The notes below the pieces were generated by a model. It was given only the letters and a program-made list of their open reading frames with translations, did not search any database and was not told the DNA's origin. Below are positions 10,231 through 63,529 of a stretch of DNA of 64,000 bases, piece by piece. A program made the position numbers and the translations under genes. The stretch's first letter is position 1; each line of letters opens with the position of its first letter. The stretch covers positions 90,243-154,242 of the forward strand of contig JAIPIA010000001.1 in the NCBI GenBank assembly GCA_021734945.1, given 5' to 3'. The DNA is from Minisyncoccota bacterium. Its GTDB lineage: Bacteria; Patescibacteriota; Minisyncoccia; Phycocordibacterales; CAIZLB01.

Positions 10231-12102
10231 TTATCGTCCTCTAGCTGCACCACTTACACCACCAGCACCTCCTGTTCGGGGAACACTAAAGAGAGAGTTG
10301 GTTGTAGCCTTTGTGGTTGTAGCATTCATTATTGTTCGAGTAACTACAAATTCACCCTCAGAGAGTCCACTCAAAATTTCTATAGATGTATCATTTGATT
10401 CACCAACAGTTACGATTTTTTCAATGGGTGGGGTAGGGAGAGCTGTACCACTTTGGCTGTTTGGTCCTATTGGCCCAGTCAAAGGAGATGTTGCGAGATT
10501 TGCGCCAGTAGATGATCCTCGTCTTTTGAACTCACTCATACTCGTACTACCTGTCGTACTACTAAAAGTATTCTTTTTGATTGAAGTTTGTACCGCTGTC
10601 ATGTTTGCAACTTCTACATACTTTGTGCCATTTTTACTTTTTACTGCAGCAGTTGGGATAAGTAATACATTAGGTTTGTTTTTTGTAATAATCGTAGCAC
10701 TAACACTCATACCTGGTTTGATTCTCTCATCTGTAGTGTCAAAAGCAATCTGTGTAGTGTAACTTACGACACCTTGAGAAACAGTTCCGACAAGATCAAT
10801 ATTGGCTACTGTACCAGTAGCTGTCACATCATCGACAGCATCAAATGTGAGTAAAACAGGCTGTCCTACTTTTATGTTTGCCACATCGACTTCGTTGAGC
10901 GTAATTTCTGCAACTTTTTGTTTTGTTATAAAGACACCGACTGAATCAGAAACATTGTCACCAATTTTCACATTTAGTTTTGCCAAGATTCCATCAAATG
11001 GTGCGCGGATATTGTACTTGTCATAGTCAAGTTCCTTTTGAGCTATGTTGAGCTGCTGAGAACGAATATCAAGCGGATCTGCACCCTTGATTGTCTGGGC
11101 TAATGATTCATTTCTTTCTTTTATATTTCGGTCTGCTGCTGATATATCATTCTTAGCATTTTCAATCGCAGTTTTTGCTGACAAGAGATTACTAAGGTTA
11201 GAATTATTTTTTGAAATCCAGCTATTTATATTATTGAGGGCAGTCGTTGCTTGACTTGATATCTGACTGTTGGCACTGTTTCTTATAAATTCTACTGCAA
11301 GACTTGAATTTTTTAAGGACTCACTCAGTTTTGATGTAAGAGAATATGTTTTTAATAGTAATGTTTCAGTAGTGTTTGTCGAATTTGACCTTGCTGTAAG
11401 GCGATATTCTGATTGGAGGTCCTTGTAGTCATTTTGAGCCACATCGAAAAGTGTACCAGCACTATTTCGGTATGTTTGTGCTGTGCTTGAAAGTGTCGAG
11501 ACACTCGTATCGTTTAAAAAACCATCTTTTGCATAAAAAATATCGTTTGTACCTAATATAATAGAAGGTAAATCAACGAAACTACTAGATACTGCAGTAA
11601 GCCCATCTTCGTATGCTTTTGCAAGAGCGACCTCTGCTTTTACTTTTGACTGTTGTGCGTCTTGGAGCGAGTTTTGTGCTTGAGTGAGGGTGTTTGCATC
11701 TGCGGGTTGGGTAAGTTTTTGCAAAGATAGACGCGCACTTTCTAGAGAAATAGAGACATCTCGATTATCAATCTGTGCAATAAGTTGGCCTGCTTTCATC
11801 TCTTGTCCAACTTGGGCATTTATTCGTGTGATGTTACCAGATGCTTTTGCTTTTAGATCAATTTGATTTGAAGCTGAAACTTGGCCAGTACCAACTATAG
11901 TAGTGGTAAGCTCACCAATTGTAGATCGAGAGAGTACATAACGAGTTTCACTACTCGTACCAAATAGTGCGTGATATGAGTAGTATCCACCTGTCGCAAT
12001 AACAACTACTCCGATGGTGCTTATAATCTTGTGTGTTTTTGAATAATTAAATAAAGATCTAAAGAGTTGAGCAGTGCATTTCATAATGTGTATTATACAC
12101 AC
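10231..12102 (-). CDS. HlyD/MacA-family periplasmic adaptor (membrane fusion protein), unusually long
   Basis: N-terminal TM anchor, long coiled-coil, beta-barrel/lipoyl-like region, C-terminal Gly/Arg-rich tail. Annotated start 12102 is GTG; ATG (MKCTAQ...) at 12084 is more likely. First gene of the MFP-ATPase-permease operon. Confidence 0.7.
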   Translation of the reverse strand: MCIIHIMKCTAQLFRSLFNYSKTHKIISTIGVVVIATGGYYSYHALFGTSSETRYVLSRSTIGELTTTIVGTGQVSASNQIDLKAKASGNITRINAQVGQEMKAGQLIAQIDNRDVSISLESARLSLQKLTQPADANTLTQAQNSLQDAQQSKVKAEVALAKAYEDGLTAVSSSFVDLPSIILGTNDIFYAKDGFLNDTSVSTLSSTAQTYRNSAGTLFDVAQNDYKDLQSEYRLTARSNSTNTTETLLLKTYSLTSKLSESLKNSSLAVEFIRNSANSQISSQATTALNNINSWISKNNSNLSNLLSAKTAIENAKNDISAADRNIKERNESLAQTIKGADPLDIRSQQLNIAQKELDYDKYNIRAPFDGILAKLNVKIGDNVSDSVGVFITKQKVAEITLNEVDVANIKVGQPVLLTFDAVDDVTATGTVANIDLVGTVSQGVVSYTTQIAFDTTDERIKPGMSVSATIITKNKPNVLLIPTAAVKSKNGTKYVEVANMTAVQTSIKKNTFSSTTGSTSMSEFKRRGSSTGANLATSPLTGPIGPNSQSGTALPTPPIEKIVTVGESNDTSIEILSGLSEGEFVVTRTIMNATTTKATTNSLFSVPRTGGAGGVSGAARGR

Positions 12103-29590: not shown

Positions 29591-29662
29591 TCCGTGGTAG
29601 CTCAGCGGTAGAGCAATCGACTGTTAATCGATTGGTCGTAGGTTCGATCCCTACCCACGGAG
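29591..29662 (+). tRNA. tRNA-Asn (anticodon GTT)
   Basis: manual fold: acceptor TCCGTGG/CCACGGA, D-stem GCTC/GAGC, anticodon stem ATCGA/TCGAT with loop CTGTTAA, T-stem GTAGG/CCTAC with loop TTCGATC, discriminator G; CCA not encoded. Confidence 0.85.
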
Positions 29663-31327
29663 CAAGTTAGGACAGACCGACGCAAAAACGTCGGTTTTTC
29701 CTTTGTCTACATCATAATTTCTAGGTTCGAACTGTGGGTTTTTGAGTTTTGCTTCTTTGAGGCCTTGAATGAGTATATCCATCCATTTTGTGTTGATAAT
29801 ACTCACTTTTTCTTCATCCCATATTAGGTTCGAACCAAAACGTGAAAGAACCTCTCTTTTGGAGTTTATATTGTCAGATTGCATAATATCCACAAACTCT
29901 TTTGTGAGGTCAGCAATGTTGATTGCTGTGTCAAACCAGCTAGCATCAACTTTCCTTCTCGAACTTGATAAGATAGTTTTGTTTAATTCCTCAAGTGACA
30001 CTTTTCCATCAGCTGGAGATAGTGCTCCATCGGCCATCATTTCGATAATCTTCTTTTTTCGTTTTTCAGCTGTCTCAACTTCGTCTTTTGCATGAGTTGT
30101 CATTGCTTGCTGTAGCTCTATATCTTTATCCTTTAATTCGTGTAGATACTTTTTACTCCACTCGACAAGACTTGGGGATAGTTGTACGTTTTCTTTTGCA
30201 TAATCAACTATGTGTCCCGTTAGTTTATTCTCACTGATGTATTTAGTCTTTAGGTAGCTTTTTCTTCTTGCAACATTGTAGTAATAAACGTATTCAAGAT
30301 ATGTAGGCTTATCTATCTCCATGATCAATTTTCCACAATCAGGACAATTTGTCTTATTTGAATATGCAAACTTTTTCTTACAATCACAAATAACCTGGAA
30401 CTTAATGTCTGGTCCTATAAAATCACCGTTAGGGGCCTTAATAAAACCGGCAAAAGTGGTTACATGTGTCTTTGTCTTTGGGAGGTTTCTGTCCGAAAGC
30501 ATTCTTAAGATCTTGTTGTGCTGTGCTTCTGTTATCACTCTCGGTAAGCTTGCGTTTAGCTCATAACGCTGCCCATTCTGATAAAAGAAACCAGCGTATA
30601 TAGGGTCTTTTAGCATCGTATGAACTCTTGAGATGGCCATAAGAGCTCCACCAATTCTTTTATGTTTTGGAGTGGTTAGTTTTAATTCTTCACGTACGTA
30701 TCGTGCCAATCTATTTGCAGACCAATTACCAGTAAGGAACATGTGAAAAATCCTTTCAACTAGCGGGTATTTGTCTTTATCGACTAGCCACTTTCTATTT
30801 CCTTTCTCTTCGGTCTTATCATTGATAAAACCGATAGCAGCGACTCCATGAGGGTAACCCTTTAATGCTTTAGTCTTTTGTCCATTTTTTACAAAGGCAC
30901 TTTTATCGTCACTATCTCTTTTTGAAAAAAGGAACTCGAGTCCTAAAGTCATTTTGTCGATAGATGTATTGTAGTAAGTTCTTGTAGGTGTTTTAACACA
31001 AAGCAGTTTACCTCTATCCATTGCATCTATAACTCTTGCTCCATCAATCGCATTACGTGCGAGACGGTTCGGATGTATAGCTAAAATTGCATTGATCTCG
31101 CCTTTGTTTATTTTTGAAATAAGGCCGTCGAAAATCTGTCGACCCACCTTAAAAGCACTTTTCTCTTCCTTCAAGTAAAGACAAACATTCAGGTCCATTC
31201 TCACTGAGAAATCAGCAAGCTCACGTTCTTGAGTCTCGATTGACTGCACCTGCTTATCTTCGGTATCACTTGATTTTCTACAATATGATCCAAAGCGAAG
31301 TTCTTTTTCATTGATATTGTTGTTCAT
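29651..31327 (-). CDS. large serine recombinase (resolvase/invertase catalytic domain, recombinase domain and zinc-ribbon)
   Basis: 558 aa; N-terminal YCRKSSDTEDKQVQSIETQ (catalytic Ser region), recombinase zinc beta-ribbon CDCKKK...CPDCGK; last 12 nt of CDS overlap tRNA-Asn 3' end. Confidence 0.85.
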   Translation of the reverse strand: MNNNINEKELRFGSYCRKSSDTEDKQVQSIETQERELADFSVRMDLNVCLYLKEEKSAFKVGRQIFDGLISKINKGEINAILAIHPNRLARNAIDGARVIDAMDRGKLLCVKTPTRTYYNTSIDKMTLGLEFLFSKRDSDDKSAFVKNGQKTKALKGYPHGVAAIGFINDKTEEKGNRKWLVDKDKYPLVERIFHMFLTGNWSANRLARYVREELKLTTPKHKRIGGALMAISRVHTMLKDPIYAGFFYQNGQRYELNASLPRVITEAQHNKILRMLSDRNLPKTKTHVTTFAGFIKAPNGDFIGPDIKFQVICDCKKKFAYSNKTNCPDCGKLIMEIDKPTYLEYVYYYNVARRKSYLKTKYISENKLTGHIVDYAKENVQLSPSLVEWSKKYLHELKDKDIELQQAMTTHAKDEVETAEKRKKKIIEMMADGALSPADGKVSLEELNKTILSSSRRKVDASWFDTAINIADLTKEFVDIMQSDNINSKREVLSRFGSNLIWDEEKVSIINTKWMDILIQGLKEAKLKNPQFEPRNYDVDKGKTDVFASVCPNLLRG

Positions 31328-32026
31328 TTTTTTGTTAATTTTAGCACGCGCCGGGATCTTTTACCTCTGATCGATAGTAAAAGTTATCCTTATATGACAA
31401 CACATCCGGGGCTTCATCACGATGTTTTCTCAAGACCCTTGATGAAGATCAGATTGATACGACTCACATCAGACGGCTGGGCAAGAGATCCCGGAGAGAA
31501 CTTGTTTTCCCAGCTTTCGCATGTGCACCTTATCAACCCTTATTTGTTTTGTAGAGCGAAGTTGTTTAACCAGATGCTCTAAATCAGCTGGTGTGGATGT
31601 GTATTTGTTCTACGCTTATGAGCTTCGGCAAGCAAGGTCAATAAGAACAAGCCAATCTGTTGTAGATCGTTTTGATCCAAGAGGTTTGACTTATCTTCGC
31701 CGATTTCTAGGCGGAGAGCCTCTTTTAAATCTTCGATTGCTTTAGTGCTCAAAGTTTTCATACTTTTGAGCCGGTTTCGTCCCAAGAACCGGCCATTCAC
31801 GGGCTAGGTTGAATGACTGGTTTTTAAGACCAAACACGTCTAGCCCATAGTATGAGTCTACGAAATAGCACTCAAAACTCCGAGATCAATATCCAAAATT
31901 ATCTTTATTTAACAACGTATTTTTTATGTGTATTGACACCACTTGCATAAAACAAGAAATACTATCTCTTTCTCTACCAATAAAAATAAGCTAGAATGTA
32001 ATTACAACTAAATAAGCCGACCTAAC

Positions 32027-32165
32027 CCATCGAGAGAAATCTCGGTGGTATGGTCAAAAGTCCAGTAACGATCAAAGAACCCATTATGTGGGGTTGTCGT
32101 TACTGGCCATGCAGGGAAACTTGCATGGAGGCCGCAAGGTCTCACTCACGTAGTGGGCTTTTTGG
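32027..32165. ncRNA. candidate structured RNA element (four consecutive hairpins, two GNRA tetraloops), function unknown
   Basis: CCATCGAGA-GAAA-TCTCGGTGG; CCAGTAACGA...(nested AACCC/GGGTT)...TCGTTACTGG 10-bp perfect stem; CCATGCA-gggaaact-TGCATGG; GAGGCC-GCAA-GGTCTC. Lies within the 720-bp non-coding region and directly upstream of a membrane-protein gene. Confidence 0.3.
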
Positions 32166-32172
32166 TTGCCAA

Positions 32173-32511
32173 ATTATGAAAAAGATAATAGGCATTTTGA
32201 AGAAAGATAAAATAGGGAGACTAGATTACATAATTGCTCTAGGCACATTTCTTGTGCTGGAAGTAGTCATTTTCAGCTTCATCTTCTTGCTTGTCGATCA
32301 CATCAGTAACGACACATGGTTATTTATTTTCGGTACTTTGCTTATTACATCTCTAGGTACTCTTGCTTGGATAAATTCAAAGAGGATGCGAGACGCTGGA
32401 AGGAATACTAAGGAGCTTTTTTACTACTTTGTCATCCCTTTATTCTTTGCTGCCCATAGTATTTTCCTTATCTTTTTAACCAGCAAAGATGCACATCTAC
32501 GACAAAAATAA
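32173..32511 (+). CDS. small 3-TM membrane protein (island-encoded)
   Basis: ORF track gives 32050..32511, but the N-terminal 41 aa overlap the structured non-coding element; ATG at 32173 (MKKIIGIL...) followed by hydrophobic helices is the likely start. Confidence 0.45.
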   Translation: MMKKIIGILKKDKIGRLDYIIALGTFLVLEVVIFSFIFLLVDHISNDTWLFIFGTLLITSLGTLAWINSKRMRDAGRNTKELFYYFVIPLFFAAHSIFLIFLTSKDAHLRQK

Positions 32512-32592
32512 AAATCTAAAGGCAATTTTGGACTTCAAAGACGATAAACCTATTTTGACCTTTAACCCTAAATCGTGGGTCAATAAATTAAG

Positions 32593-32823
32593 GTGGAAGT
32601 TGAGGGTAATACTAAAAAAACTACTGCCATGATTACAGCAGTATATGTTCTAGCTATCACAGTCCTTTGCTTTCAGATCTTGGTAGTACTTTTCGTTATC
32701 TTATCCCTATACAACCTTATTAAGGTTTACGTAAAGACCAAAGAGAAAGAATACCTAGCTGTAATTATATTGGTACTCGGAATTATAGGACTTTGTCTTA
32801 TTTTCCCAGATTTGAGGCCTTAA
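32593..32823 (+). CDS. small 2-TM membrane protein
   Basis: 76 aa, two hydrophobic helices; overlaps 3' end of convergent HTH gene by 26 nt. Confidence 0.35.
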   Translation: MEVEGNTKKTTAMITAVYVLAITVLCFQILVVLFVILSLYNLIKVYVKTKEKEYLAVIILVLGIIGLCLIFPDLRP

Positions 32824-33217
32824 CCCAGCCATTACTTTTTGCCATTTTATCAATACGTTCCTGGAGTTCATCATCGCTTAAACCCTCAAAGCCTGTCCGC
32901 ATAGGTTCTGGAGTCTCAACACGTACTCGGTTAGTGTATTCGCTCGGGTAGCGTCTCTCAAGCCACCAGGCGGCCGCTTGCCAGGTCTTTTTACTAGCTT
33001 CTTTAATTATCTTTATATGCTCCATCTTGTACTCGATCTCTTTTTGCCTCATCTGTTCTGAGAAATCTGAGTCTCGTTTCCAAAAAGAAAGAGTGTCTTC
33101 GCTAATACCAGCAAGAGCAGAAGCGTCCCGCTGGCTAGCGCCATGACTGATAGCGTCTAGGATGATCTTAATGGTTTTTGGGGTAGCTTTTGTTTTACCT
33201 TTAAGTATTTGCGTCAT
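32798..33217 (-). CDS. phage-type helix-turn-helix protein (terminase-small-subunit-like / phBC6A51-type HTH)
   Basis: 139 aa; HGASQRDASALAGISEDTLSFWKR HTH and AAAWWLERRYPSEY motif typical of this phage HTH family. Confidence 0.55.
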   Translation of the reverse strand: MTQILKGKTKATPKTIKIILDAISHGASQRDASALAGISEDTLSFWKRDSDFSEQMRQKEIEYKMEHIKIIKEASKKTWQAAAWWLERRYPSEYTNRVRVETPEPMRTGFEGLSDDELQERIDKMAKSNGWVKASNLGK

Positions 33218-33254
33218 GAAAGAATGATAACAAAACTACCCTATATTATCCGAG

Positions 33255-36200
33255 CTATTTTATATTGAGACTTTCCCACGCAGAGATGATTTGTTGCATT
33301 CTGGCTCCTGCAAGTGGCATTGATGCAAAACGAATTCTGATCACGCTGCGAATAAGTTCAATTGCTGTTCGTGCATCTCTTTCAAAGGTCAAAGCATCAA
33401 GAACGGTCATAATCAGACCTTCACGCTCCTTATCGGTAACCGGCTGCTGCCATAGTAAAAACATGAAGTCAGCTAACACACCAACGACTGATCTAAGCTC
33501 CATTTTTACACCTTTAAGCGTGGCCAAGACTTCTTTGAATGGACTTTGGTTTTCCCATTGTGCTTGCCTTGCTGCCTCAATCAGAGTAGTGCTTTCAAGA
33601 GTAACGTGCTGATATCTGCGAAGAACCAGCTTGATGACTGCATCCCAGTATTCTGAACTCGAGATCTTCTTGTCGATAAGAAAGTGCATCAAAATTGCTT
33701 GCGTCCAAACGCCGTTCACTTTGAAGTCATCGTTCTTTGCATACATTCTAGTGGCCAAGTCTTCAGCGTACAACGAGCACTCGTTTTCTTTTGCGATAAG
33801 TATTGTTTCAATTGCATACTTTCCGAGCACTTTTTCCATCTCTTCAAACTGTTGAGTCTTCGGCAATGTTTTGCATGGTGTTAGAGTACAGTTTTCACGT
33901 ATCCATTTTTTCAGAGACTCAAGTGCTTCCACTTCGGTCGCAGCTTGTTCAGGAGTTTTTTCGTCTCGAATAAAGCTACCATCCATTTTTCCTAAAGTAG
34001 TAGATCCTTTTGAGCCCATCCCTTTTCTTTCTGAAATTGCCTCGTTCAGAGTATCTATGGTTGATTGTGTTACAAGAACTTTCTTGAATTTATCTTTGAA
34101 CATTTCAAGCAAGCCAAGTTGAGATAGAGTGAGTAGGGATGTAATGTCTATGGCTATAGTGTCGTTTGTTTTGATTGAGTCGAGGGCGACTTGACGCTCT
34201 TCAAGGGTGCCAACGCAAGACCTTATACCTACGCTTGCTGAAAGGCCATACCATACATCAACAATGTTCTTGTTAATTACACTTGCGAAAGCACCTACCG
34301 TGAGTTTCATGTCAATATAAAGTTTCTCTGCTTGAGAGACATATTCACTGTGATTTGAGACAACCTGCAAAACTTTATCGAGACTCTCTTTTGTCTTTTC
34401 CTCAGAGCTTACATCTACTGAAAAGCGTTCAAGAGACTTTTGTTCGGAAAATCGTTCCGGCATCAGTCGCATAGACTCATGAAGTGCATGCACGTATTTG
34501 TTTTTGATCTCAGTGATTTTAACCACAATTTTACTGATGGCCCCTTCAGACACAACAACATCATCATTAACCGATCTGCCCAAAAGCTTTTCACCAATTC
34601 CAGAAGAAACACCTATTTCATTCAAAGCCATGCTGAGATCTTTTCGGTCTTCAAGTAGGTAGCATGTGATCTGATCAGCGTCGTTTTTCGTGTATACAGC
34701 ACTAGATATGACTGCAGTTTTTGGGATCTCAAGTAGTTTCTCAAGTTTATGGTCTTGCGCCAAAAAGATAGTCATATACTTGGCATGTGCTTCGCCGTCA
34801 TCGAAGTACTTCCGTCTCAACTGATAGGCGGCTTCGAGTGATTTTTCTACCTTATTCCTTTCAGCGTATAGCTGGGCCAACTGGAACCCCGGGTTTATAG
34901 GGAGTTGGGTTATATCAATATCTTCATCGAGAAACTTATCAAGCTTTTCAAACTCATCAAGTCGAAACCAGTGTGTAGCTAGCCGAGTTTTTATTTCCAG
35001 GTCGTCTGGATGAGATAATAAGTATTTTTCTGCAGCAGCAGAAGCAGCAGACAGATCTCCGATGTTCTCGAGAATAGATAGCTCAATCTGCAACAGAAAC
35101 AAACCCTTGTTTTCGTCTGGTAGACGCTTAAACAAGCTTAGTGCTTTATCAACCTCGTTGGCTCTGTAGTACGAATAGAAAAGATTATCTAGGTGAGGTG
35201 ACGGAACTCTGGGGTCAATTATCTTTTCATACAAAGGCCATGACTGCGCGTATTTTTGCATGTTATACAAGTCGTCTGCCAAATTGATGACAATGTGAGC
35301 AGGGGTCATGTCAGTAATATATCCGTAGGCCTCATCAAGTAGATTGCCCGCCGCTTCCTTGTTACCAGCAAACCTTTCGGTACGGCTTGCGGCAATTAAA
35401 TTCTCGATATTCGTTGGATCAAACGATCTAAGTTTATCGACGATTTTTTTTGCTTTCTCATAATTTTTCTCCTTGATATAAACATGAACAAGCATGCGTT
35501 CTTCCTCGGATCGTAATTCAGGCGGGAGGTCGTCGCTGAACGATTTGATCAGTGTCTCCCGTGCCTCTACTAGGTTATTTTCATCAAAATAGATACCAGC
35601 AAGAACATATGCGGCTTCTGGAACCTCTTTTTTACCTACCACAGTCTTGAGTATCTCAATGGCCTGCTTTCTCTCTCCCTTTGAGTAGAGCATGAACGCC
35701 TGCTGTTTCAACATTGCCGCATCTTCAGGCTGGTAGCGCACCGCGCTGGCCATATCAGCATTAGCCTTATCCATTTCACCTAGTAGCTTATAAGCTGTTG
35801 CTCGATTGGCGTACCAAGAGGGACGATAGCTTATACTTTCAGAATTAGAAAGACTGTCTATGGCTTCCGAAAGTAATTGAACAGCTTTTTCTATTTTTTC
35901 CTTGTCTTCTGGGATAAGTTGCATATTGTTTGCGACTTCATGCTTCTGCATAAAAGTCTCAAGGATCGTGGATGCAAGATTTGCTTGAATGTCAGGGTTC
36001 TTCTTTCTGATTTTTATAGAGTCTTCCATTGCAATCTCAAGCCACTTTATAGATGATGCGAGATCACCGCGTTCACGTGCTGCATGCGCAATGGTAAACG
36101 CCACATCTTCTGACTTTCGAAACTCTGCTGGTATATCCTTCAGTATATCTTCAAGCGCTTGAGTCTTTGGGGAGCAGTTTATCAGAATGCCGATTGCTCG

Positions 36201-37532
36201 TGTGCTCGCTGGGTTCTTGTCCAAGACTTTTCTAATGTATGTCTTACACTCTTCTGTCTGATCGAGCATGAGATGACCCAAAGCTCTGTTACAAAGTGAT
36301 TTTTCATCTTCGGGATTGTATTGGTGAGCTTGTATAAAAAGTGACCCTGCCTCTTTTTCTCGATGTAGAGATGCTAATGCGGCGGCCTTGTTCGTTAGTA
36401 TTCGAAACTTAGAGATGTCGTTTGCACTGCTCCAGATCCGCTTCTCCAGACCCTCAAGAAAGTCCAGAGCTTCTTTCGGCTTCATATTGTTGATCAAATC
36501 TCTTCCGTGATCGATCTCAGCGGCATGTTCACTCGCGATTGCAGTAGTGTCAAAAACCATCTGAGCTATTTCCTTTTTTTCTGTTGTGTTAGCGGCAACA
36601 GACTCATTTATGAGAGCAAGACCGTCACCAACCTTTTTTTCAATGTTGCCGAGCTTTTCCGTAAAAGCATCAGAAAGAGAAGGATCGACGTTCGAAGAGG
36701 CTAATGCCGGGTAGTATTTTGAGGCAACATTTCCAAAGTTCCCAAGTTTTTCGAGTATGTCATCCCAAGAGAAGACGTGAACGGAAAACATTCCCTTTGT
36801 TGCGTGCTCCATTGAGATCTTCAGTGCCGCTTGTTGTAGCGACGTGTCTCTTTTACCAGTGTATGCAATAACGAGTTCTGTAAGAGGAGGGTTGAATTTT
36901 TTTGCTTCATCGACAATATCTTGAATATCGCTCACTGATAAAGCGTCAGCAGTTTCATTGCTTGTCGCATCCTTCTTCTTGCACTGTATTGCTCCAAGTT
37001 TTTGTGTCTCTTTAACTTTACCTAAGATGTCTATTCCGTTCTGTCTCTGTCCTGAACGACCATATCTCACTAAGTTGTGATCGTTCCAAATCTCTTGCCA
37101 TAAATCAGCAGAAAGTCTTTCAAATTTCTCCCATTCTCTTGGAGGAGGGACTTGCCACTGGGCAATATCAACAGGACTCGAAGATGTAGACTTTGGCTCA
37201 TTCCCGATAGAGCTGTCTATAAGTTTTTGCAGGCTTAAAATGAAATCGTTCCAGGTCATTTCGCCTTTGTACCAAAGAATACAGATGTCGGTTCTGTGCC
37301 GGAGGACGCGCATGAAGGTTTGCCATGTGAAGCCTTTCGCCTTGAGCTGACTTTTCAGGTTATCCCAGAGGTATTTCGGCAGTTTGTTGCCTGTCCAGAC
37401 GATAGAAGCATCGTCGCTGCTTTCAGGGGAAGACTGCTTCATAGATTGCATCAACGCTTTTAGGTCCAAAGGTTCAGGTGGAGTATTTATTTTCATACCC
37501 CCAGTATATGGGGTATAAAAGTAAAATACCAT
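33255..37532 (-). CDS. 1425-aa multidomain protein: N-terminal Mrr-like PD-(D/E)xK restriction-endonuclease-fold domain, long TPR array, C-terminal PIN-like(?) domain
   Basis: aa about 134-262 match the Mrr_cat pattern (FE.L..LW...GRSGQ.QNGIDI...IQCK...ELVIAYTG, FSWDDIL); aa about 350-1000 tetratricopeptide-like helical repeats; C-terminal DTIAIDITSLL plus later acidic residues suggest PIN-like fold (weak); no Walker A found. Confidence 0.8.
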   Translation of the reverse strand: MVFYFYTPYTGGMKINTPPEPLDLKALMQSMKQSSPESSDDASIVWTGNKLPKYLWDNLKSQLKAKGFTWQTFMRVLRHRTDICILWYKGEMTWNDFILSLQKLIDSSIGNEPKSTSSSPVDIAQWQVPPPREWEKFERLSADLWQEIWNDHNLVRYGRSGQRQNGIDILGKVKETQKLGAIQCKKKDATSNETADALSVSDIQDIVDEAKKFNPPLTELVIAYTGKRDTSLQQAALKISMEHATKGMFSVHVFSWDDILEKLGNFGNVASKYYPALASSNVDPSLSDAFTEKLGNIEKKVGDGLALINESVAANTTEKKEIAQMVFDTTAIASEHAAEIDHGRDLINNMKPKEALDFLEGLEKRIWSSANDISKFRILTNKAAALASLHREKEAGSLFIQAHQYNPEDEKSLCNRALGHLMLDQTEECKTYIRKVLDKNPASTRAIGILINCSPKTQALEDILKDIPAEFRKSEDVAFTIAHAARERGDLASSIKWLEIAMEDSIKIRKKNPDIQANLASTILETFMQKHEVANNMQLIPEDKEKIEKAVQLLSEAIDSLSNSESISYRPSWYANRATAYKLLGEMDKANADMASAVRYQPEDAAMLKQQAFMLYSKGERKQAIEILKTVVGKKEVPEAAYVLAGIYFDENNLVEARETLIKSFSDDLPPELRSEEERMLVHVYIKEKNYEKAKKIVDKLRSFDPTNIENLIAASRTERFAGNKEAAGNLLDEAYGYITDMTPAHIVINLADDLYNMQKYAQSWPLYEKIIDPRVPSPHLDNLFYSYYRANEVDKALSLFKRLPDENKGLFLLQIELSILENIGDLSAASAAAEKYLLSHPDDLEIKTRLATHWFRLDEFEKLDKFLDEDIDITQLPINPGFQLAQLYAERNKVEKSLEAAYQLRRKYFDDGEAHAKYMTIFLAQDHKLEKLLEIPKTAVISSAVYTKNDADQITCYLLEDRKDLSMALNEIGVSSGIGEKLLGRSVNDDVVVSEGAISKIVVKITEIKNKYVHALHESMRLMPERFSEQKSLERFSVDVSSEEKTKESLDKVLQVVSNHSEYVSQAEKLYIDMKLTVGAFASVINKNIVDVWYGLSASVGIRSCVGTLEERQVALDSIKTNDTIAIDITSLLTLSQLGLLEMFKDKFKKVLVTQSTIDTLNEAISERKGMGSKGSTTLGKMDGSFIRDEKTPEQAATEVEALESLKKWIRENCTLTPCKTLPKTQQFEEMEKVLGKYAIETILIAKENECSLYAEDLATRMYAKNDDFKVNGVWTQAILMHFLIDKKISSSEYWDAVIKLVLRRYQHVTLESTTLIEAARQAQWENQSPFKEVLATLKGVKMELRSVVGVLADFMFLLWQQPVTDKEREGLIMTVLDALTFERDARTAIELIRSVIRIRFASMPLAGARMQQIISAWESLNIK

Positions 37533-37603
37533 ATTGCTTGTCAGATAAAACTGTGTCCTGGTTGCATATCTATCTCAATTTAACTTTTTGAGTTAAAGTA
37601 AGG

Positions 37604-38197
37604 GTGTTTATGGCGACTACAACCCCAACAATATGGACTTTCATTGATGCGTCACCTTTTTGGTCGGCTTTTTTTGCACAGCTTCTTGCTACTCTTATTG
37701 TTGTTATTATCGGTTCTGTTGTAATTCCACCAATACTAAAGTGGAGGAAAAGAACAAAATTAAAGTTTTTCAAAACCCATACCTTTTTTAGTAAGAACTT
37801 TGAATTAACAGAGTCATCTGACGGAGAGTATGAGGCCACACTTCATTTATCTATAAAAAACTTTGGATCTGAAACGGTAGAGCGCTTTTATTGGGAGATG
37901 TATTTCCCAAAAGAGATGTCTGTTGAATTGGTTACCAAACCTCCTTACCCTCGTTACTTCACCACAAATCATCAGAAAGGAAATAAATACTTGAGACATT
38001 ATGGTTATGTAGAGTTACCGCTCTTTTCACTTGATGAAGTTGATTTTGTATACGAAATAAAAGTTAAAATTAAAGAAAAGAAAAAGATCAAGATATTCTA
38101 TTTCTTCAACAGCGATAATGGCGTATCGCCAGCATGGACTTGGCTTGCTATTACTCTTAAGAAACATCATTGGCTAAAGTTTTTGGTTCTTGAATAA
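37604..38197 (+). CDS. hypothetical membrane-anchored protein
   Basis: 197 aa; N-terminal hydrophobic helix, Lys-rich C-terminal part; last gene before candidate attR. Confidence 0.45.
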   Translation: MFMATTTPTIWTFIDASPFWSAFFAQLLATLIVVIIGSVVIPPILKWRKRTKLKFFKTHTFFSKNFELTESSDGEYEATLHLSIKNFGSETVERFYWEMYFPKEMSVELVTKPPYPRYFTTNHQKGNKYLRHYGYVELPLFSLDEVDFVYEIKVKIKEKKKIKIFYFFNSDNGVSPAWTWLAITLKKHHWLKFLVLE

Positions 38198-38336
38198 CTC
38201 ATTTCCTCTATTATAGCTATTCGGACAGCGTCCCAGGTTCGGAGCAGTAAAAGAAAGAGTGCCAGCACAAGCTGGTGCTTTTTCTTTTGCATGACTGTGT
38301 GAATACTGTGATCGAATTTCGACCAAGGGGAGGGGT

Positions 38337-38352
38337 GATCCATACCCACGGA
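38337..38352. repeat. candidate attR: 16-nt direct repeat of tRNA-Asn 3' end (15/16 identical)
   Basis: GATCCATACCCACGGA vs tRNA 29646..29661 GATCCCTACCCACGGA; a second weaker copy CCCACGGAGATAAGTT at 39540..39555 resembles tRNA end plus its downstream flank. Confidence 0.45.
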
Positions 38353-38466
38353 ACTCGTCTGTACATAATAGAAATAATGTTATATAAATGTAATGTTCTT
38401 TTGCGTCAGTAAACAATCAATAGGCTTAAAGGAGAGCCTGGTACGATTTGTACCGAATATGTCAGT

Positions 38467-38685
38467 ATGCATTTCAATACAAACGAAATCATGATTCCAC
38501 TCACTTCGTGGACTGCGTTCGACAGAGGAGAAATTATTGAAGCCAATTCGCCAGATGGTATTACTCTTAAGGTGGGAGATACAATCTGGTGGGTATGTGC
38601 TCAGTATGATGGTACGTGTAGCGTTGTGGAAGCAAAATCGACTGTGCCAGGAAGTACTGTGAAGATCAAAAAACTGGCGAATTAA
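38467..38685 (+). CDS. small hypothetical protein
   Basis: 72 aa ORF in otherwise non-coding stretch; no motif. Confidence 0.3.
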   Translation: MHFNTNEIMIPLTSWTAFDRGEIIEANSPDGITLKVGDTIWWVCAQYDGTCSVVEAKSTVPGSTVKIKKLAN

Positions 38686-38889
38686 AAAGCTACCAACGAA
38701 AGCAGGAGGTCACCTCTACTCGTTGGTGGCTTTTCTGTTTTATATAAAATACTATATAAGGTGATTTTTTTACCCTAAAACTTTTCTGAACGAAAATATT
38801 TTTTGTATTTTTATTTTGACACCTAATAATACATGTGTTAATTTATTTCCAGACTGACAATCCCGTCAGCCCGAACAAAGGAGGTTCTT

Positions 38890-39462
38890 TTGAAACCTGA
38901 TATTCTCTGCAGTGTTTTGGCAGGACTTCTCAGTGTCCTCGCCTTCGGCATCTATAATTGGCAAACTTTCCAAGGACAAGTCAGCCCTAACATCACTTCG
39001 TGGGCAGTGTGGAGCTTTATGACGCTCCTCAACTTCACTTCCTATAAAGCAATGACAAAGGATGGCTGGAAAAGTCTTCTTCCGACCATTAGTGGTATCC
39101 AGTGCATTCTCACCTTTGTGCTCGCTCTCTTCCAAGGGCAACTCAAAGTAATTGGAATGAACGACGGTATCGTCCTCGTGGTCGGCATCACGGCAAGTTT
39201 GTTGTGGTGGAAGCTTAAGTCTCCAACAGTCACGAACATGATGCTCCAGCTTGGCATCACCATAGGTTTCATCCCGACGTTTCAAAGTGTCTGGATGCGA
39301 CCTCAAAGTGAAATCGCCCTTTGCTGGTTTCTGTGGACTGTCTCGTTTGTGTTCCAAACTACCGTGGTCATTCAGCGGTGGAAAGAACAAAAGCGAGACC
39401 TTGTCTATCCAATCAATTGCCTTTGGCTTCATCTCGCTGTGGCACTGCTGGCTCTTCGGTAA
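38890..39462 (+). CDS. hypothetical multi-TM membrane protein, GC-rich gene
   Basis: 190 aa; TTG start 8 nt after a strong RBS AAAGGAGG; 5-6 TM helices; noticeably higher GC than genome; antisense 218-aa ORF rejected. Confidence 0.55.
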   Translation: MKPDILCSVLAGLLSVLAFGIYNWQTFQGQVSPNITSWAVWSFMTLLNFTSYKAMTKDGWKSLLPTISGIQCILTFVLALFQGQLKVIGMNDGIVLVVGITASLLWWKLKSPTVTNMMLQLGITIGFIPTFQSVWMRPQSEIALCWFLWTVSFVFQTTVVIQRWKEQKRDLVYPINCLWLHLAVALLALR

Positions 39463-39649
39463 TAACCCACTCAACAGGATACCCCTGCTTGCAGTGGGTT
39501 TTCCTTTTATATAAGTAAACAAGTTCTAATATCCTCAAGCCCACGGAGATAAGTTGTCAGACAATTTGTGAGGTGTATCATTAAGTCAGATTTAAGCGTT
39601 TAAAACCTGCGGAGTTAACATCAACCCACAATACAGAAAGGAGAACTTA

Positions 39650-40561
39650 ATGAAAATCTTTTATGATAGCACTTACGATTTAGAAGGTTACGACACCACA
39701 AGGAAAGCTAAATGGATCTATGATTCTCTGTGCCAAAACCCAATCAGAAATGTCGAGGTCATAAGTCCTCCATTGCTGGATGAGACGCTCTTAAAAAGAG
39801 TTCATTGTCAAAGGTATATAAACACAGTGAGGTCAGGATCACCAATCAGACTTGCTGAATCGCAAGGTCTTCGTTGGTCACCTGATCTTTGGAGATCTGT
39901 AACTGCTTCCACTATGGGCGTAGTAGCTGCTGCACAACAATCATTGAATGATGGTGTTTCTGGTTCATTATCGAGTGGATTGCATCATGCACAGTACGCG
40001 CGTGGAGCAGGATACTGCACGTTCAATGGTCTTGTGGTAGCAGCAGAGCATCTCCATCAAGAAGGAGTTGAACATATTCTCATTCTTGATTTGGATGCCC
40101 ATTTTGGAGGAGGTACAAACTCACTTCTTGTCAAAAGGGGTTATATCCATCATGTTGATGTATCAGTCAGCAGGTTTGATAGGTATCCTGTGTGTCCTTG
40201 TCAGGCTGGCACGAATCCTCGTCCTTTCAGAACAGCTTTGTTGATTACTAATTCCGATGAGTATCTTCGATCAATTGAAATCTGCCTTGAAAAGATTGAG
40301 GAATTAAACATCAAGTTTGGCGCTTGCTTATACAACGCTGGTGTGGATCCACATGAAAATTGTATGGTAGGAGGAATTGATGGAATCACGACTGATACCC
40401 TGCACTGTCGCGATCAGATGGTTTTTGAATGGTGTAAGAGACGGGGAGTACCTATTTCATTTGCTTTGGCTGGCGGTTATATAGGCACACAGCTGTCAGT
40501 GGAGACGCTTGTTGGCTTGCATCGAGGAACGATTGAAGCGGCAGCTAGGACTATTCGTTGA
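39650..40561 (+). CDS. histone deacetylase (HDAC)/acetoin-utilisation AcuC/acetylpolyamine amidohydrolase family protein
   Basis: 303 aa; HDAC motifs GLHHAQYARGAGYCTFNGL and ILILDLDAHFGGGT (variant of D.D.HHGNG); strong RBS AGGAGA; GC-rich. Confidence 0.8.
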   Translation: MKIFYDSTYDLEGYDTTRKAKWIYDSLCQNPIRNVEVISPPLLDETLLKRVHCQRYINTVRSGSPIRLAESQGLRWSPDLWRSVTASTMGVVAAAQQSLNDGVSGSLSSGLHHAQYARGAGYCTFNGLVVAAEHLHQEGVEHILILDLDAHFGGGTNSLLVKRGYIHHVDVSVSRFDRYPVCPCQAGTNPRPFRTALLITNSDEYLRSIEICLEKIEELNIKFGACLYNAGVDPHENCMVGGIDGITTDTLHCRDQMVFEWCKRRGVPISFALAGGYIGTQLSVETLVGLHRGTIEAAARTIR

Positions 40562-40569
40562 GATTTTGT

Positions 40570-40603
40570 GGTGGCGCTGTCCTTAGTTGGACGGCGCCAC
40601 TTT
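40570..40603 (+). terminator. rho-independent terminator
   Basis: GTGGCGCTGTCC-ttagtt-GGACGGCGCCAC 12-bp stem (one G-U) followed by TTTT. Confidence 0.7.
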
Positions 40604-40669
40604 TACGTTTATATTACTTACACTTGATAATAGTGATGAATTTAATTATCATTAGTGTAATTAAATAAT

Positions 40670-41962
40670 ATGAATAGCGATAAAGTAAATGTTCGGAGAG
40701 AATTTTTTGCTGGCCTTGCCACGTATTTGGCAATTACGCATGTATTCATACTTAATCCAATATTATTGTCTAAGGCAGGTATTAATTTAAGTGCAGGTTT
40801 CTTTGCTGTAATAATATCTAGTTTTGTCGCTACTTTGCTTATGGGTATTTGGGCAAAATTACCTTTTGTAGTTGCTCCTGCTACTACGCTAACCACTTTC
40901 CTTGTCTATTATGTAGTTATAGAAAATGGTGTTCCTTGGCAAGGAGCATTAGCTGCTGTGTTTGTATCTGGTGTGCTTTGCATACTGATGACATATTTCT
41001 CAGTTAGAACAAAAATAATTGAGTCTATGGATGGTGTGTTGAAAATTGGACTTCTTTTTTCCCTGGGCTCATTCTTAGTAGCAAATGGACTAGTGCAAGC
41101 TAAGATAATAGTTTTTAATAATGGTCTAATTAAGTTTTTGCCATTCAATTCATTTCAAACGTATACAGGTTTTCTTATTTTATTGGCGGGGCTTGGCACA
41201 ACACTTCTTTTTAGAATTAGATTTATGAGGCTATCTTTTGCTCCAGTTATTGGAATAATTGTCGCTGCACTGCTTGCTTATAGTCTTGGAATTAAGTCTA
41301 CAGTGGGCGCACACTTCTCTAAGGAAATGTTTTTATCTATTGGAAAATTGGATTTTTCGCTTCTTTTGGATTCTCGAGTAATTACCGCAATACTTATTTT
41401 TTTTATAGTTGATTTCTTTGGTAGCGTAGGGAAATTCGTCGGGTTGTTTGGTTTTATAAAAGGAATGGGGTCTATTGAGGAGAAAGAGAAGATGAACAAG
41501 GCGCTATATATTGATGGAGTAGGAAATATAGTTGGAGCACTATTCGGGGCAACTACTTTATCAGTATTTTTATCAAGTGCTGTTGGAATAAAGGTGGGAG
41601 GTAGAACAGGTCTTACTGCTATATTTGTTTCACTATTTATTCTATCAAGTCTATTTCTGTTTCCATTAGTTGGGTCAATCCCTCCTGGGGCAATAGCCGG
41701 CACTTTGATATATATAGGTTGCAGTATGATTCCTGCTAGAAAAATATTCGGTAATAGTAAGGACATGCTTGGTTATTTATCTGTTTTTGCATTTTTAGGT
41801 GCATCTGTTATTTCTTTCATAACATATAGTATTGATAAATCTATATTATTTCTATTTGTAATTCAAACAATACTTAGTTTACGAAATGGGATTCAGAAAA
41901 GTAATATTACTTTTATGGTAATTACTATTATCCTTGGATTAGCTATCTTTCTTCAAAATTAG
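40670..41962 (+). CDS. NCS2-family purine permease (AzgA-like guanine/hypoxanthine permease, COG2252)
   Basis: 430 aa, about 12 TM; N-terminal REFFAGLATYLAITHVFILNPILLSKAG is characteristic of COG2252 permeases. Confidence 0.7.
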   Translation: MNSDKVNVRREFFAGLATYLAITHVFILNPILLSKAGINLSAGFFAVIISSFVATLLMGIWAKLPFVVAPATTLTTFLVYYVVIENGVPWQGALAAVFVSGVLCILMTYFSVRTKIIESMDGVLKIGLLFSLGSFLVANGLVQAKIIVFNNGLIKFLPFNSFQTYTGFLILLAGLGTTLLFRIRFMRLSFAPVIGIIVAALLAYSLGIKSTVGAHFSKEMFLSIGKLDFSLLLDSRVITAILIFFIVDFFGSVGKFVGLFGFIKGMGSIEEKEKMNKALYIDGVGNIVGALFGATTLSVFLSSAVGIKVGGRTGLTAIFVSLFILSSLFLFPLVGSIPPGAIAGTLIYIGCSMIPARKIFGNSKDMLGYLSVFAFLGASVISFITYSIDKSILFLFVIQTILSLRNGIQKSNITFMVITIILGLAIFLQN

Positions 41963-60046: not shown

Positions 60047-60727
60047 ATGAAAAAAAATCACATTGTCGTCCTCGCCGTGCTTTTTATTGCGGCAGTTATC
60101 TTTGTATCAATGAAAATGAGTATGCAGGAGGAGAAAGCTTCTCTGGTCGCCCCGTTGGCTTCACCTGTTGTTGCCTCCTCGAACGTCCAATCCACGACCC
60201 CAAATACGGATCTGGTTGATCCGTCAGTTCCCGAGCTGGTAGTGGTCGTTCCGGCCAAAAAAATCTCGCTCGACTTGGGTATTGAGAGGCTCAAGTCGAT
60301 TCGGCTGGAGTTGTCTAAAAGAGGCTTTATCATCAATGATACTGTCCCGTCGGTGCCAGGTGAGGTAGTTCCAATTGAAATCCTCACGTATTCAAAGAAC
60401 TCTTCGTCAAAAGAGAGAATTGAACTCTCAGAGATTTTAGAGGATTTGATGAATGCTGGTTACAGACCAATCAATGCCGTGGAGTTAGTGTCGATGGATG
60501 ATAACTTCAGGGAGATTTCGGAGCAATGCATCTTTGCTTTCGGAACGATTCTCAAGCCGGAGAGTCTTAGTCGTAGGGCGATCATCTTTGGAGGTACAAA
60601 TCATGAGAAGACTTTTAGAGCTCAGCTTTATGATATTCCGTTGACTGGTTGGAATCGGAACGATGAACTGTTGCTTGCTGTCGTCAAGGTGAGGCCTACA
60701 AAATCAGACCTTACAGAAAAAAAATAG
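60047..60727 (+). CDS. hypothetical membrane-anchored protein, GC-rich gene
   Basis: 226 aa; N-terminal TM; Pro/Val-rich linker; clearly higher GC than neighbours. Confidence 0.5.
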   Translation: MKKNHIVVLAVLFIAAVIFVSMKMSMQEEKASLVAPLASPVVASSNVQSTTPNTDLVDPSVPELVVVVPAKKISLDLGIERLKSIRLELSKRGFIINDTVPSVPGEVVPIEILTYSKNSSSKERIELSEILEDLMNAGYRPINAVELVSMDDNFREISEQCIFAFGTILKPESLSRRAIIFGGTNHEKTFRAQLYDIPLTGWNRNDELLLAVVKVRPTKSDLTEKK

Positions 60728-62866: not shown

Positions 62867-63529
62867 TTAGGGCATCCTGAAGTCAGGATCTTCAAAGAGT
62901 TTCGTGCACAACTCACGAGCCCGAGCGTTCATCATTTCTTCGGTATCCATAGTTTCGGAGTCTGGAATCACAAGGTTGTATGAACCCATGAGCTCGAGCC
63001 TGACAATTATCGCCAAGGTTGCCTTGACGAATGCGTGCAAGTCAGCGATCTCCGATGTGTGATCTGTCTTCGTGTCTTCTTGAAAGGCTAGAATGAGGCG
63101 AACGGCTGCCCGTACCTCATCTTCTAACACCTGTGCAAGAACACTCGAGCTCCTTACTTCTTCGATCCGGTTTGTTGCCCAGATTCCAAGAAATAACTTC
63201 TCGAGCCGGTGATAGTCTTCCAGGTCGTACGAGTTATCCTTAACCCGGCCTTTCTGGATATTGATCCAGGTGCACAGGACAGATGCGGAGATGATTAGAC
63301 CTCCTGCAGTAAGTGCGAATCTTTCCCAAGACGGTGCCTTGAAGAAGAAACACGTTGCAGCAATCATGACTGCGATTTGGATACAGCTGCTGGTGATATA
63401 GCGAACATCCAAGCTTTTCACCTGCTGTAACATTTTCTTGCAGCTGATGTGTAAGGCCATCCGGGAATCAAAAAGTTCGCGGAAGATTTCCAACATTGCT
63501 GCTGGAAGTTTGCTCTGTTTGGTTTTCAT
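62867..63529 (-). CDS. hypothetical membrane protein, GC-rich gene
   Basis: 220 aa; 2-3 central TM helices; higher GC than flanking genes. Confidence 0.5.
   Translation of the reverse strand: MKTKQSKLPAAMLEIFRELFDSRMALHISCKKMLQQVKSLDVRYITSSCIQIAVMIAATCFFFKAPSWERFALTAGGLIISASVLCTWINIQKGRVKDNSYDLEDYHRLEKLFLGIWATNRIEEVRSSSVLAQVLEDEVRAAVRLILAFQEDTKTDHTSEIADLHAFVKATLAIIVRLELMGSYNLVIPDSETMDTEEMMNARARELCTKLFEDPDFRMP

Follow-up and report, generated by a model that had tools for sequence, protein, structure and literature searches.

A GC-rich 2.3-kb segment is probably the distal end of a tRNA-Asn-anchored variable region in a Minisyncoccota genome

In a 64,000-nt stretch of DNA from a Minisyncoccota bacterium (assembly GCA_021734945.1, contig JAIPIA010000001.1, positions 90,243 to 154,242; hereafter the window, in whose coordinates positions are given), a GC-rich segment at 38337-40610 carries a gene for a membrane protein followed by a gene for a homolog of the histone deacetylase (HDAC) family. 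We consider it probable that these 2.3 kb form the distal end of a ~10-kb variable region, the product of successive site-specific insertions at a tRNA-Asn gene's 3' end, and that the HDAC gene belongs to the resident flank of this region. Bacteria of the candidate phyla radiation (CPR, Patescibacteria) are scavengers with tiny, streamlined genomes, and how they gain and exchange accessory genes is poorly understood. The locus suggests a concrete route, made up of a tRNA-Asn hotspot, a large serine recombinase (LSR) gene fused to the tRNA end and small cassettes that express themselves.

The variable region begins at the only tRNA gene in the window, tRNA-Asn(GTT), which is intact and is followed on the same strand by two distal repeats of its 3' end, DR2 and DR3 (Table 1). 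DR2 matches the tRNA 3' end at 18 of 23 positions over 38332-38354 and at 15 of 16 over 38337-38352, the part that a first-pass annotation of this DNA had already recognized as a repeat; its local-alignment score of 27 exceeded the best score in all 20 shuffles. The same annotation had placed a second partial copy at 39540-39555, and this copy is borne out by the composite structure of DR3. The middle of DR3, CCCACGGAG at 39540-39548, reproduces nine nucleotides of the tRNA-Asn 3' end without a mismatch (for such an exact 9-mer, 0.09 matches would be expected per window), and its right part, ATAAGTTGTCAGACA (AAGTT..CAGAC), resembles the sequence that directly follows the tRNA.

Moreover, DR3 is supported by comparison with loci from other genomes, which are given L numbers below. 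Its left half, AAACAAGTTCTAATATCCTC, matches a family of repeats that delimit cassettes in other CPR arrays. The sequence directly 5' of the 9-mer, 39516-39536 (TAAACAAGTTCTAATATCCTC), aligns with the left half of the repeat of locus L005, and a 76-nt stretch (39461-39536) matches the approach to one of the L005 repeats. When a profile HMM was built from 58 repeats of other loci, its best match in the whole window, on either strand, fell at 39516-39536 and ended 3 nt before the tRNA 9-mer. Since the repeat alignment and the profile provide independent comparative evidence, we regard DR3 as credible and extend it to 39516-39563. Taken singly, these sequence signals are weak; their coincidence at one intergenic point and on the correct strand is not. 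A similar isolated repeat site was found 2 kb from the membrane-gene copy in L015. Neither shuffled alignment nor the repeat profile revealed a further decayed repeat between the small candidate gene orf72 and the membrane gene, or after the HDAC gene.

The recombinase expected of such a region lies next to the tRNA. The 558-aa product of the reverse-strand gene at the tRNA has the N-terminal resolvase domain and the recombinase domain of an LSR, well above 400 aa in length, and the gene runs into the tRNA, so that the final 13 nt of the tRNA, together with 3 further nt, supply the codons for its C-terminal LLRG and its stop codon. The arrangement recurs in L030, where the C-terminal remnant of an LSR gene (L030:5030-5270, minus strand; 32% identity, E=2e-16) overlaps a tRNA-Asn 3' end of identical sequence, and we therefore judge the overlap to be non-accidental. 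Within the region 29651-29840, the LSR gene contains two 11-nt boxes, TAGGTTCGAAC, 103 nt apart and conserved in L030, which match both the T-arm of the tRNA and the left core of the cassette repeats. The two boxes are translated in different frames (as GSNL and FEPR), which hints that it is the DNA sequence that is constrained, and they may be DNA sites embedded in coding sequence.

We propose that elements bearing a site similar to the tRNA-Asn end would recombine with the 3' end of the tRNA, each insertion duplicating the site at its distal end and shifting earlier arrivals outward. The recombinase would presumably be the LSR whose gene runs into the tRNA, and the crossover is predicted to fall at GGAGC or immediately 3' of it, a position that would preserve the tRNA. 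Module 1 would then be an integrative island with its own LSR, ending at DR2. As newer elements would enter at the tRNA and displace older ones outward, module 2, which lies behind it, would be either an older relic, its recombinase lost, or a cassette mobilized in trans that had none to begin with. In the first-pass annotation, both genes of the GC-rich segment had been placed between the repeats and read as a second, degraded insertion. This is retained for the membrane gene, which sits in a module without a recombinase (38355-39515) behind the first island; the HDAC gene lies distal to the last repeat and is no part of that module.

Table 1. Features of the tRNA-Asn-anchored region and its distal flank in the window
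Feature	Position	Strand	Remarks
tRNA-Asn (GTT)	29591-29663	+	ARAGORN; Rfam tRNA model 72.4 bits; anchor, attL-side of variable region
Large serine recombinase, 558 aa	29651-31327	-	PF00239 at residues 14-157, PF07508 at residues 185-280
Module 1 (island 1)	29664-38331		LSR, LOOT RNA, DUF805-like open reading frame (ORF), helix-turn-helix ORF, TPR-GreAB-C-PIN protein, orf197
DR2	38332-38354	+	Direct repeat of tRNA-Asn 3' end; right boundary of module 1
Module 2	38355-39515		orf72 and self-contained membrane-gene cassette; ends at DR3
orf72 (candidate), 72 aa	38467-38685	+	No family match; hairpin and T-run 3' of the ORF
Promoter-like TTGACA-17-TAATTT of the cassette	38816-38844	+	Inferred by reading the sequence; not listed by consensus scan
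5'-untranslated-region (5'-UTR) hairpin CTGAC-AATCCC-GTCAG, then Shine-Dalgarno (SD) sequence AAGGAGGT	38852-38885	+	Conserved in window, L003, L005, L006 and L009
Membrane-protein gene, 190 aa, TTG start	38890-39462	+	Predicted seven-transmembrane PQ-loop/SWEET/cystinosin fold
Terminator-like hairpin and T-run	39484-39506	+	3' of membrane gene
DR3 (composite)	39516-39563	+	Last repeat of the region; AAACAAGTTCTAATATCCTC left half, CCCACGGAG, ATAAGTTGTCAGACA
Promoter-like TTGTCA-16-TATCAT of HDAC gene	39554-39581	+	-10 region kept in L002
Class IV (HDAC11-like) Zn-dependent deacylase homolog, 303 aa	39650-40561	+	PF00850, E=2.4e-30, 106 bits; SD AAGGAG at 39638
Intrinsic-terminator-like hairpin	40570-40601	+	Closes HDAC unit; 13 pairs (9 G-C), 6-nt loop, T-run

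The membrane gene is a self-contained unit that recurs elsewhere. Comparison of the window with 13 other loci showed that the shared DNA is limited to ~38826-39475, that is the promoter, the 5'-UTR hairpin, the SD sequence, the gene and the start of the terminator, while the surroundings are entirely different. The membrane protein is 74-87% identical to the products of genes in other CPR-type genomes, one of which (L008) is labelled as Ca. Tayloriibacteriota, a candidate phylum label different from that of the host. The two closest cassette copies (83% and 74%) are located downstream of a tRNA-Asn gene on the same strand, and others downstream of tRNA-Glu and tRNA-Val.

Repeats similar to tRNA ends accompany several of these copies. 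In L003, the cassette lies downstream of tRNA-Asn with an exact 16-nt repeat of the tRNA 3' end 1.5 kb from the tRNA. In L005, it lies 2.1 kb downstream of tRNA-Asn, within an array of ten ~34-nt repeats (AAATAAGTTCGAACATCCTCCCACCTTTGGAGC); all ten are downstream of the tRNA and resemble its 3' end, and some then carry the sequence found downstream of the tRNA. The cassette of L006 stands between copies of a repeat similar to the tRNA-Glu 3' end, three copies being present. In L009 (5861-6621), the two copies of a perfect 36-nt direct repeat, TTTCGAAAGCCCACAACTTCGGTTGGGGGCTTTTTT, which is itself a terminator-like hairpin, enclose the cassette in a minimal unit of 725 bp.

The arrays extend well beyond this one cassette. 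When JGI metagenomes were scanned for the core of the repeat, 26 stretches were recovered, many of which are arrays, and the ~34-nt consensus, AAATAGGTTCGAACATCCTCCCACCTTTGGAGCC, resembles the tRNA-Asn 3' end. Arrays of one-gene cassettes were seen in L005 (5825-16341), L028, L029, L036, L043 and other loci among L020-L045. For example, nine repeats occupy 5 kb of L028; each interval between them holds one ORF, most of the ORFs point the same way, and the repeat comes directly after the stop codon. Wherever their start can be seen, the arrays begin at tRNA-Asn, as in L025, L029 and L030, and a 74-kb contig has its repeats only in the first 6.6 kb, so that they are clustered and not dispersed. 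We then compared the flanks of the repeats: 10 pairs of sites have identical right and unrelated left flanks, and 14 pairs show the converse. From these flank-swapped pairs it follows that cassettes have been joined in varied combinations exactly at the repeat. The leaderless promoter downstream of the genuine tRNA also stands at the start of many array cassettes, and the cargo includes small membrane proteins, an EamA half-transporter, GrpB and a nucleotidyltransferase. Beside the arrays, no recombinase was found among the ten largest ORFs of L023, L027, L030, L031 and L045 or in the gene list of L005, the LSR remnant of L030 being the only trace, and neither the repeat, the membrane gene nor the LSR was found on viral contigs. 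We also considered whether the T-arm-like repeat acts as a folded tRNA-like structure; on inspection its stem does not pair, and the repeat is therefore more likely a DNA site.

These observations lead us to a more tentative idea, which we put forward as a possibility that for now falls short of being probable: DR3 and the membrane-gene cassette may be a worn-down outpost of an undescribed CPR cassette system, an analogue of integrons. Its arrays would grow out from tRNA-Asn (from tRNA-Glu in one lineage), with ~34-nt pseudo-tRNA-3' sites (AAATAGGTTCGAACATCCTCCCACCTTTGGAGCC) and site-specific shuffling, possibly by the family of tRNA-overlapping LSRs represented in the window and in L030. A literature search found no description of tRNA-anchored cassette arrays in CPR bacteria. 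If the arrays are indeed a dedicated cassette system, they would represent a new platform resembling integrons, from which many portable CPR genes could be drawn. In any case, the repeat-delimited arrays in related genomes are a more novel lead than the feature of the window itself.

The cassette appears equipped for its own expression. The TTGAC -35 box of its promoter is kept in L003 and L005. Across five genomes, RNAalifold predicted a 5'-UTR hairpin of 7 pairs, 2 of them with compensatory changes, and its general form is CTGAC-AATCYC-GTCAG followed by an A-rich tail and AAGGAGGT (L003:7936-7972, L005:7923-7962). The succession of hairpin, A-rich tail and SD raised the suspicion of a preQ1-I riboswitch; no Rfam match to a known riboswitch was obtained in the 5' UTR, even at E≤10. 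The hairpin could be a small riboswitch-like or translational control element, and the cassette would be expressed from its own promoter through an SD-dependent and possibly regulated 5' UTR.

The structural model of the membrane protein (pLDDT 93) has the 3+1+3 arrangement of seven predicted helices that characterizes the PQ-loop/SWEET fold. It differs from described members of the PQ-loop/SWEET/cystinosin group (TOG superfamily) in having no match to Pfam PQ-loop or MtN3, only a sub-threshold one to DUF6962, and in carrying PN and PT at the places of the PQ motifs. On the basis of the model, it is most likely a seven-transmembrane PQ-loop-type transporter of small solutes. We collected 52 homologs, with up to 87% identity, which share the same N-terminus and form a well-conserved alignment. 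Among GTDB species representatives, the relatives are found mainly in CPR metagenome-assembled genomes (MAGs) of Tayloriibacteriota, Vogelbacteria and bins labelled 'Saccharibacteria', and overall all relatives come from CPR or low-GC MAGs, so the family appears to be confined to CPR genomes. This distribution fits a 2025 survey in which gene transfer in Patescibacteria was found to occur mostly within the phylum (PMC12455944). The cassette thus brings a putative transporter of the PQ-loop type that is common to other CPR-type genomes, including the one with a different candidate phylum label.

A minus-strand ORF also covers the membrane gene, as a 188-aa Logan call (L001, 9217-9783) and a 218-aa ORF at 38866-39522. 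Its translation looks like low-complexity sequence and, because the plus strand has 52 homologs and a confident fold, we take the plus-strand gene to be the real one. The exact plus-strand protein is absent from a collection of 5.8 billion proteins, and it appears that the annotation of this genome either omits the real membrane gene or gives it wrongly. Relatives of orf72 were found in none of the fetched loci. A PADLOC search matched neither the membrane gene, the HDAC gene nor orf72 to known anti-phage defence systems.

The HDAC gene, which the first-pass annotation had counted as cargo, behaves differently. The only close relative of its product among the 5.8 billion proteins is P0002 of locus L002 (62% identity), from a mostly leaderless genome of 40% GC. 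In L002, the HDAC gene is followed by a 111-aa gene (60-65%), OmdA (66%) and a glyoxalase gene (83%), with gene order and orientation matching those of the window; the transporter gene between the HDAC gene and the 111-aa gene differs between the two. Similarity of the upstream sequences, including the -10 region, starts ~10-25 nt after DR3. Moreover, the composition of the gene is nearly the same in the window and in L002 (43.6% and 43.9% GC, respectively), and the GC content at third codon positions (GC3) is 0.34 in both. Given this collinearity with three downstream genes of similar divergence, the HDAC gene was in place before the two lineages split. The presence of a syntenic homolog, taken together with a GC3 within the ordinary range, leads us to set aside its description as cargo; the variable region would end at DR3, with the HDAC gene as a resident flank or an ancient acquisition. 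A 200-aa protein encoded upstream of the HDAC gene in L002 was considered as a possible homolog of the membrane protein and is not one.

The HDAC protein itself is 100% identical to NCBI K9M11_00635, from a MAG labelled 'Candidatus Pacebacteria bacterium'. Its nearest solved structures are 9rje, cited in a class IV HDAC study (PMC13325672), and 9gkv, from a survey of bacterial deacylases (PMC11532494); its identity to solved members is ~25-30%. In the alignment with 9rje, the HDAC fold, the Zn ligands and the catalytic His-His and Tyr residues are all in place: glHHa (His-His), DlDaHfGgGt (D-x-D-x-H), aGvDPH (the third Zn-ligand Asp) and the Tyr of GGY. With PF00850 and these aligned catalytic residues, it resembles the class IV HDAC11-like deacylases of cluster 5 of Graf et al. 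2024 (PMC11532494; PMC13325672), and it is probably an active Zn-dependent deacylase. Its gatekeeper position is occupied by Leu (SSGLHH), as opposed to Phe/Tyr or Thr/Ser. No close relatives were detected in GTDB species representatives with close-relative patterns, and on plasmids the only matches had ≤33% identity. A more distant homolog, P0004 (52% identity, on 32 contigs; L018:1-12918), is surrounded by McrBC, a large helicase/nuclease, DUF6339 and a DNA methylase, a defence-island-like setting.

We also examined the base composition and the translation signals of the region. The GC content of 38337-40610 is 43.1%, compared with 36.9% for the window in bulk, 35.7% upstream of the tRNA and 36.4% downstream; no other window of 2274 nt outside 29.6-40.6 kb attains this value, the maximum being 41.8%. 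The raised zone does not start at 38337, as it spans from the tRNA (~29.6 kb) to ~40.6 kb, module 1 having 40.5% GC, and the value returns to 33-36% at the nucleobase permease gene (40670-41962). The first-pass annotation had estimated an enrichment of 10-15 percentage points for the two genes; the enrichment is real and this estimate too high: the membrane gene (48.0%) is 11-12 points richer, and both the segment as a whole and the HDAC gene (43.6%) are ~7 points richer. Only the membrane gene is an outlier in GC3 (0.56, z=4.6 against 57 ORFs outside the region). The GC3 of the HDAC gene has a z of 0.9, four outside ORFs equal or exceed it, and its GC excess resides mostly at codon positions 1 and 2.

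A strong, well-spaced SD was present in only 2 of 65 ORF proxies, the membrane gene (AAGGAGGT at 38878) and the HDAC gene, which confirms the remark that such ribosome-binding sites are rare elsewhere in the window. The coordinates given for the two genes were likewise correct, as was the strong terminator at the end of the segment, whose stem has 13 pairs against the 12 bp claimed. Most ORFs of the window lack any SD and many have a TAnAAT box 8-17 nt 5' of the start codon, which suggests that initiation in this lineage is predominantly leaderless or SD-independent. L002, L003 and L005 resemble the window in that SD-led genes are a minority. Raw GC content and strong ribosome-binding sites can therefore mislead when read by eye: the HDAC gene looks foreign by both and yet has long been resident.

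Several points weigh against our reading of the segment as the distal end of a tRNA-anchored variable region. The alignment score of DR3, 22, falls within the shuffle range when taken alone, and the match to the repeat profile at this site is weak (nhmmer E=0.43). Attachment sites of LSRs usually share a short core, and repeats of 16-23 nt are not their textbook signature; module 2, in addition, is without a recombinase. Two genome-contig scans recovered no close relative of this genome (best non-self permease match, 55%), and therefore neither an empty site nor a presence/absence polymorphism is shown; no excision product was observed either. Exact-protein look-ups of the flanking genes for an empty site returned only the source sample (SRR12088351). 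Finally, in 8 of 12 other genomes the membrane gene exceeds its host in GC content, so that its GC excess may partly be a property of the gene and is not a clean sign of recent import. If the chance level of DR3 and this gene-specific GC are given full weight, together with the restriction of the family to CPR genomes, the repeats might not be recombination sites at all: DR3 would be due to chance, DR2 would bound the first island only, and the membrane gene would be one more CPR gene passed on vertically, its GC content and SD set by constraints specific to the gene. We consider this very unlikely, in view of the 74-87% identity across genomes, L008 being labelled as another candidate phylum, amid completely different neighbours, of the repeats that flank the membrane gene in three other genomes, and of the position of the best window-wide match of an independent repeat profile exactly at DR3.

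The idea closest to the first-pass annotation, that the whole of 38337-40610 with both genes is one degraded block recently acquired from a higher-GC donor, could draw on the highest GC content of any 2.3-kb window, on two SD-led genes, and on a left repeat and a strong right terminator. We hold it to be highly improbable. The second repeat lies between the genes and not after the HDAC gene, the two genes co-occur in none of the 13 other membrane-gene loci nor in L002, and the HDAC gene is collinear with its flanks in L002 at a core-like divergence, with a GC3 that is no outlier. All relatives of the membrane gene are in CPR-type genomes or low-GC MAGs, and the gene is richer in GC than its host in most of the 12 other genomes compared; a higher-GC donor is not established.

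More weight is given to another possibility, which we nevertheless regard as rather unlikely. An older element targeting tRNA-Asn could have brought in the HDAC gene as cargo before the window and L002 lineages diverged, its recombinase and distal repeat having since decayed. DR3 and its flank would be an old attL-type junction; the HDAC gene would then lie within this still older element. The flank of DR3, ATAAGTTGTCAGACA, does resemble the 3' end of the LSR gene, the coding sequence that follows the tRNA (CAAGTTAGGACAGAC), a likeness that fits either similar attB and attP arms or such a junction, and an accretion model would place an arm of the older element after an internal repeat. Moreover, the HDAC gene is a compact block with promoter, SD and terminator, both of whose flanks are unlike those in L002; it is SD-led in two mostly leaderless genomes and third-highest in GC among the non-island ORFs. 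Its distribution is patchy, as beyond the single close relative the next matches, at ~50% identity, are in Actinomycetota, Chloroflexota, Planctomycetota and others, one of them in the defence-island-like setting. The SD, the GC content and the scarcity of relatives are compatible with a foreign, though old, origin. On the other hand, no repeat or att-like sequence follows the HDAC gene in the window or in L002, its GC3 is ameliorated or native, and no tRNA is seen upstream in L002, although that contig ends 1.5 kb upstream. We retain the reading in which the variable region ends at DR3 and the HDAC gene is its resident flank.

The organization of the region recalls several known systems. The ssrA islands of Dehalococcoides have a ~540-aa serine recombinase on the reverse strand adjoining attL, and occur in tandem with 20-bp repeats; some lack integration genes, and beyond the last repeat lies a syntenic region (PMC3146451). 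By analogy, the region would share with them (DsiB) a reverse-strand recombinase of ~540-560 aa at attL and the 3' end of a small stable RNA as the target, and it has likewise stacked modules, short 3'-end repeats, a recombinase-less module and syntenic DNA after the last repeat. Unlike in Dehalococcoides, the target is tRNA-Asn and not the tmRNA, the host is a CPR bacterium and module 2 is only 1.2 kb; neither a DsiA-type second small recombinase nor a six-gene integration module was seen in the window. Tycheposons and the tRNA-linked islands of Prochlorococcus also show partial tRNA copies that mark older insertions, newer elements pushing older ones inwards; a minority carry large serine recombinases, and their cargo includes transporters and defence genes (bioRxiv 10.1101/2020.12.28.424599). 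The window has in common with them the integration at a tRNA gene, a streamlined genome and partial tRNA copies; it belongs to another lineage, with another recombinase family. Among all ORFs of the island, no primase, helicase or polymerase of a replication module was detected by Pfam, and no tyrosine recombinase was seen among the island ORFs or the largest ORFs of several array loci. Since a replication module is absent, the island is not a tycheposon.

Staphylococcal cassette chromosome (SCC) elements of staphylococci and enterococci use LSRs (CcrAB) to insert at the 3' end of a conserved gene, are bounded by direct repeats and include composite, tandem and recombinase-less pseudo-elements. 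The window resembles them in its LSR, its 3'-end insertion and the repeats that delimit its modules, and differs in having a single recombinase and a tRNA target rather than rlmH. Its LSR had only weak matches in NCBIfam (CcrB-like and XisF-like), the best being to CcrB; at 42 bits, it is far under the family cut-off of 900, and the enzyme is thus not a Ccr.

The arrays of L005, L028 and other loci are reminiscent of integrons and of clusters of attC sites lacking integron-integrases (CALIN), as they consist of shuffled one-gene cassettes of ~0.3-1.6 kb in one orientation, with a conserved site after each and a fixed anchor. Their cargo, as described above, is also typical of integrons. In contrast to integrons, they are anchored at a tRNA and not at attI/intI, their sites are ~34 nt long, conserved in sequence and similar to tRNA 3' ends, without R and L boxes or a GTTRRRY core, and many cassettes have their own leaderless promoter. 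No IntI-type tyrosine recombinase was found (IntegronFinder was not run), and the ~34-nt repeats with the core GTTCGAAC contrast with an attC of at least ~55 nt. The arrays are thus not placed with integrons or CALIN.

Island 1 has several contents of its own. A full-length LOOT RNA lies at 32019-32143 on the plus strand (Rfam RF03000, 89 bits, E=3e-15), and as it overlaps the start of the DUF805-like ORF (32050-32511), this ORF is doubtful. On the minus strand, 33255-37532 encodes a protein of 1425 aa with TPR repeats, a GreA/GreB C-terminal-like domain and the PIN domain of 'TPR-GreAB-C-PIN' (PF20698, E=3e-25); its N-terminus shows a faint match to an Mrr-like nuclease. The protein is probably a defence or conflict cargo of the island. 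In the Logan assembly of the source sample, the sequence is broken inside tRNA-Asn (L046 ends at 10923, L001 begins at 1), so that the island and the upstream flank are on separate contigs; the tRNA sequence is likely common to several strains or species of the sample, and the break says nothing about an empty site. At the far end of the window, the stretch 59.5-64 kb has 41-44% GC, and two ORFs without a Pfam match, 60047-60727 (plus strand) and 62867-63529 (minus strand), have GC3 values of 0.51 and 0.57, respectively. This stretch may be another acquired region, or its ORFs may be miscalled.

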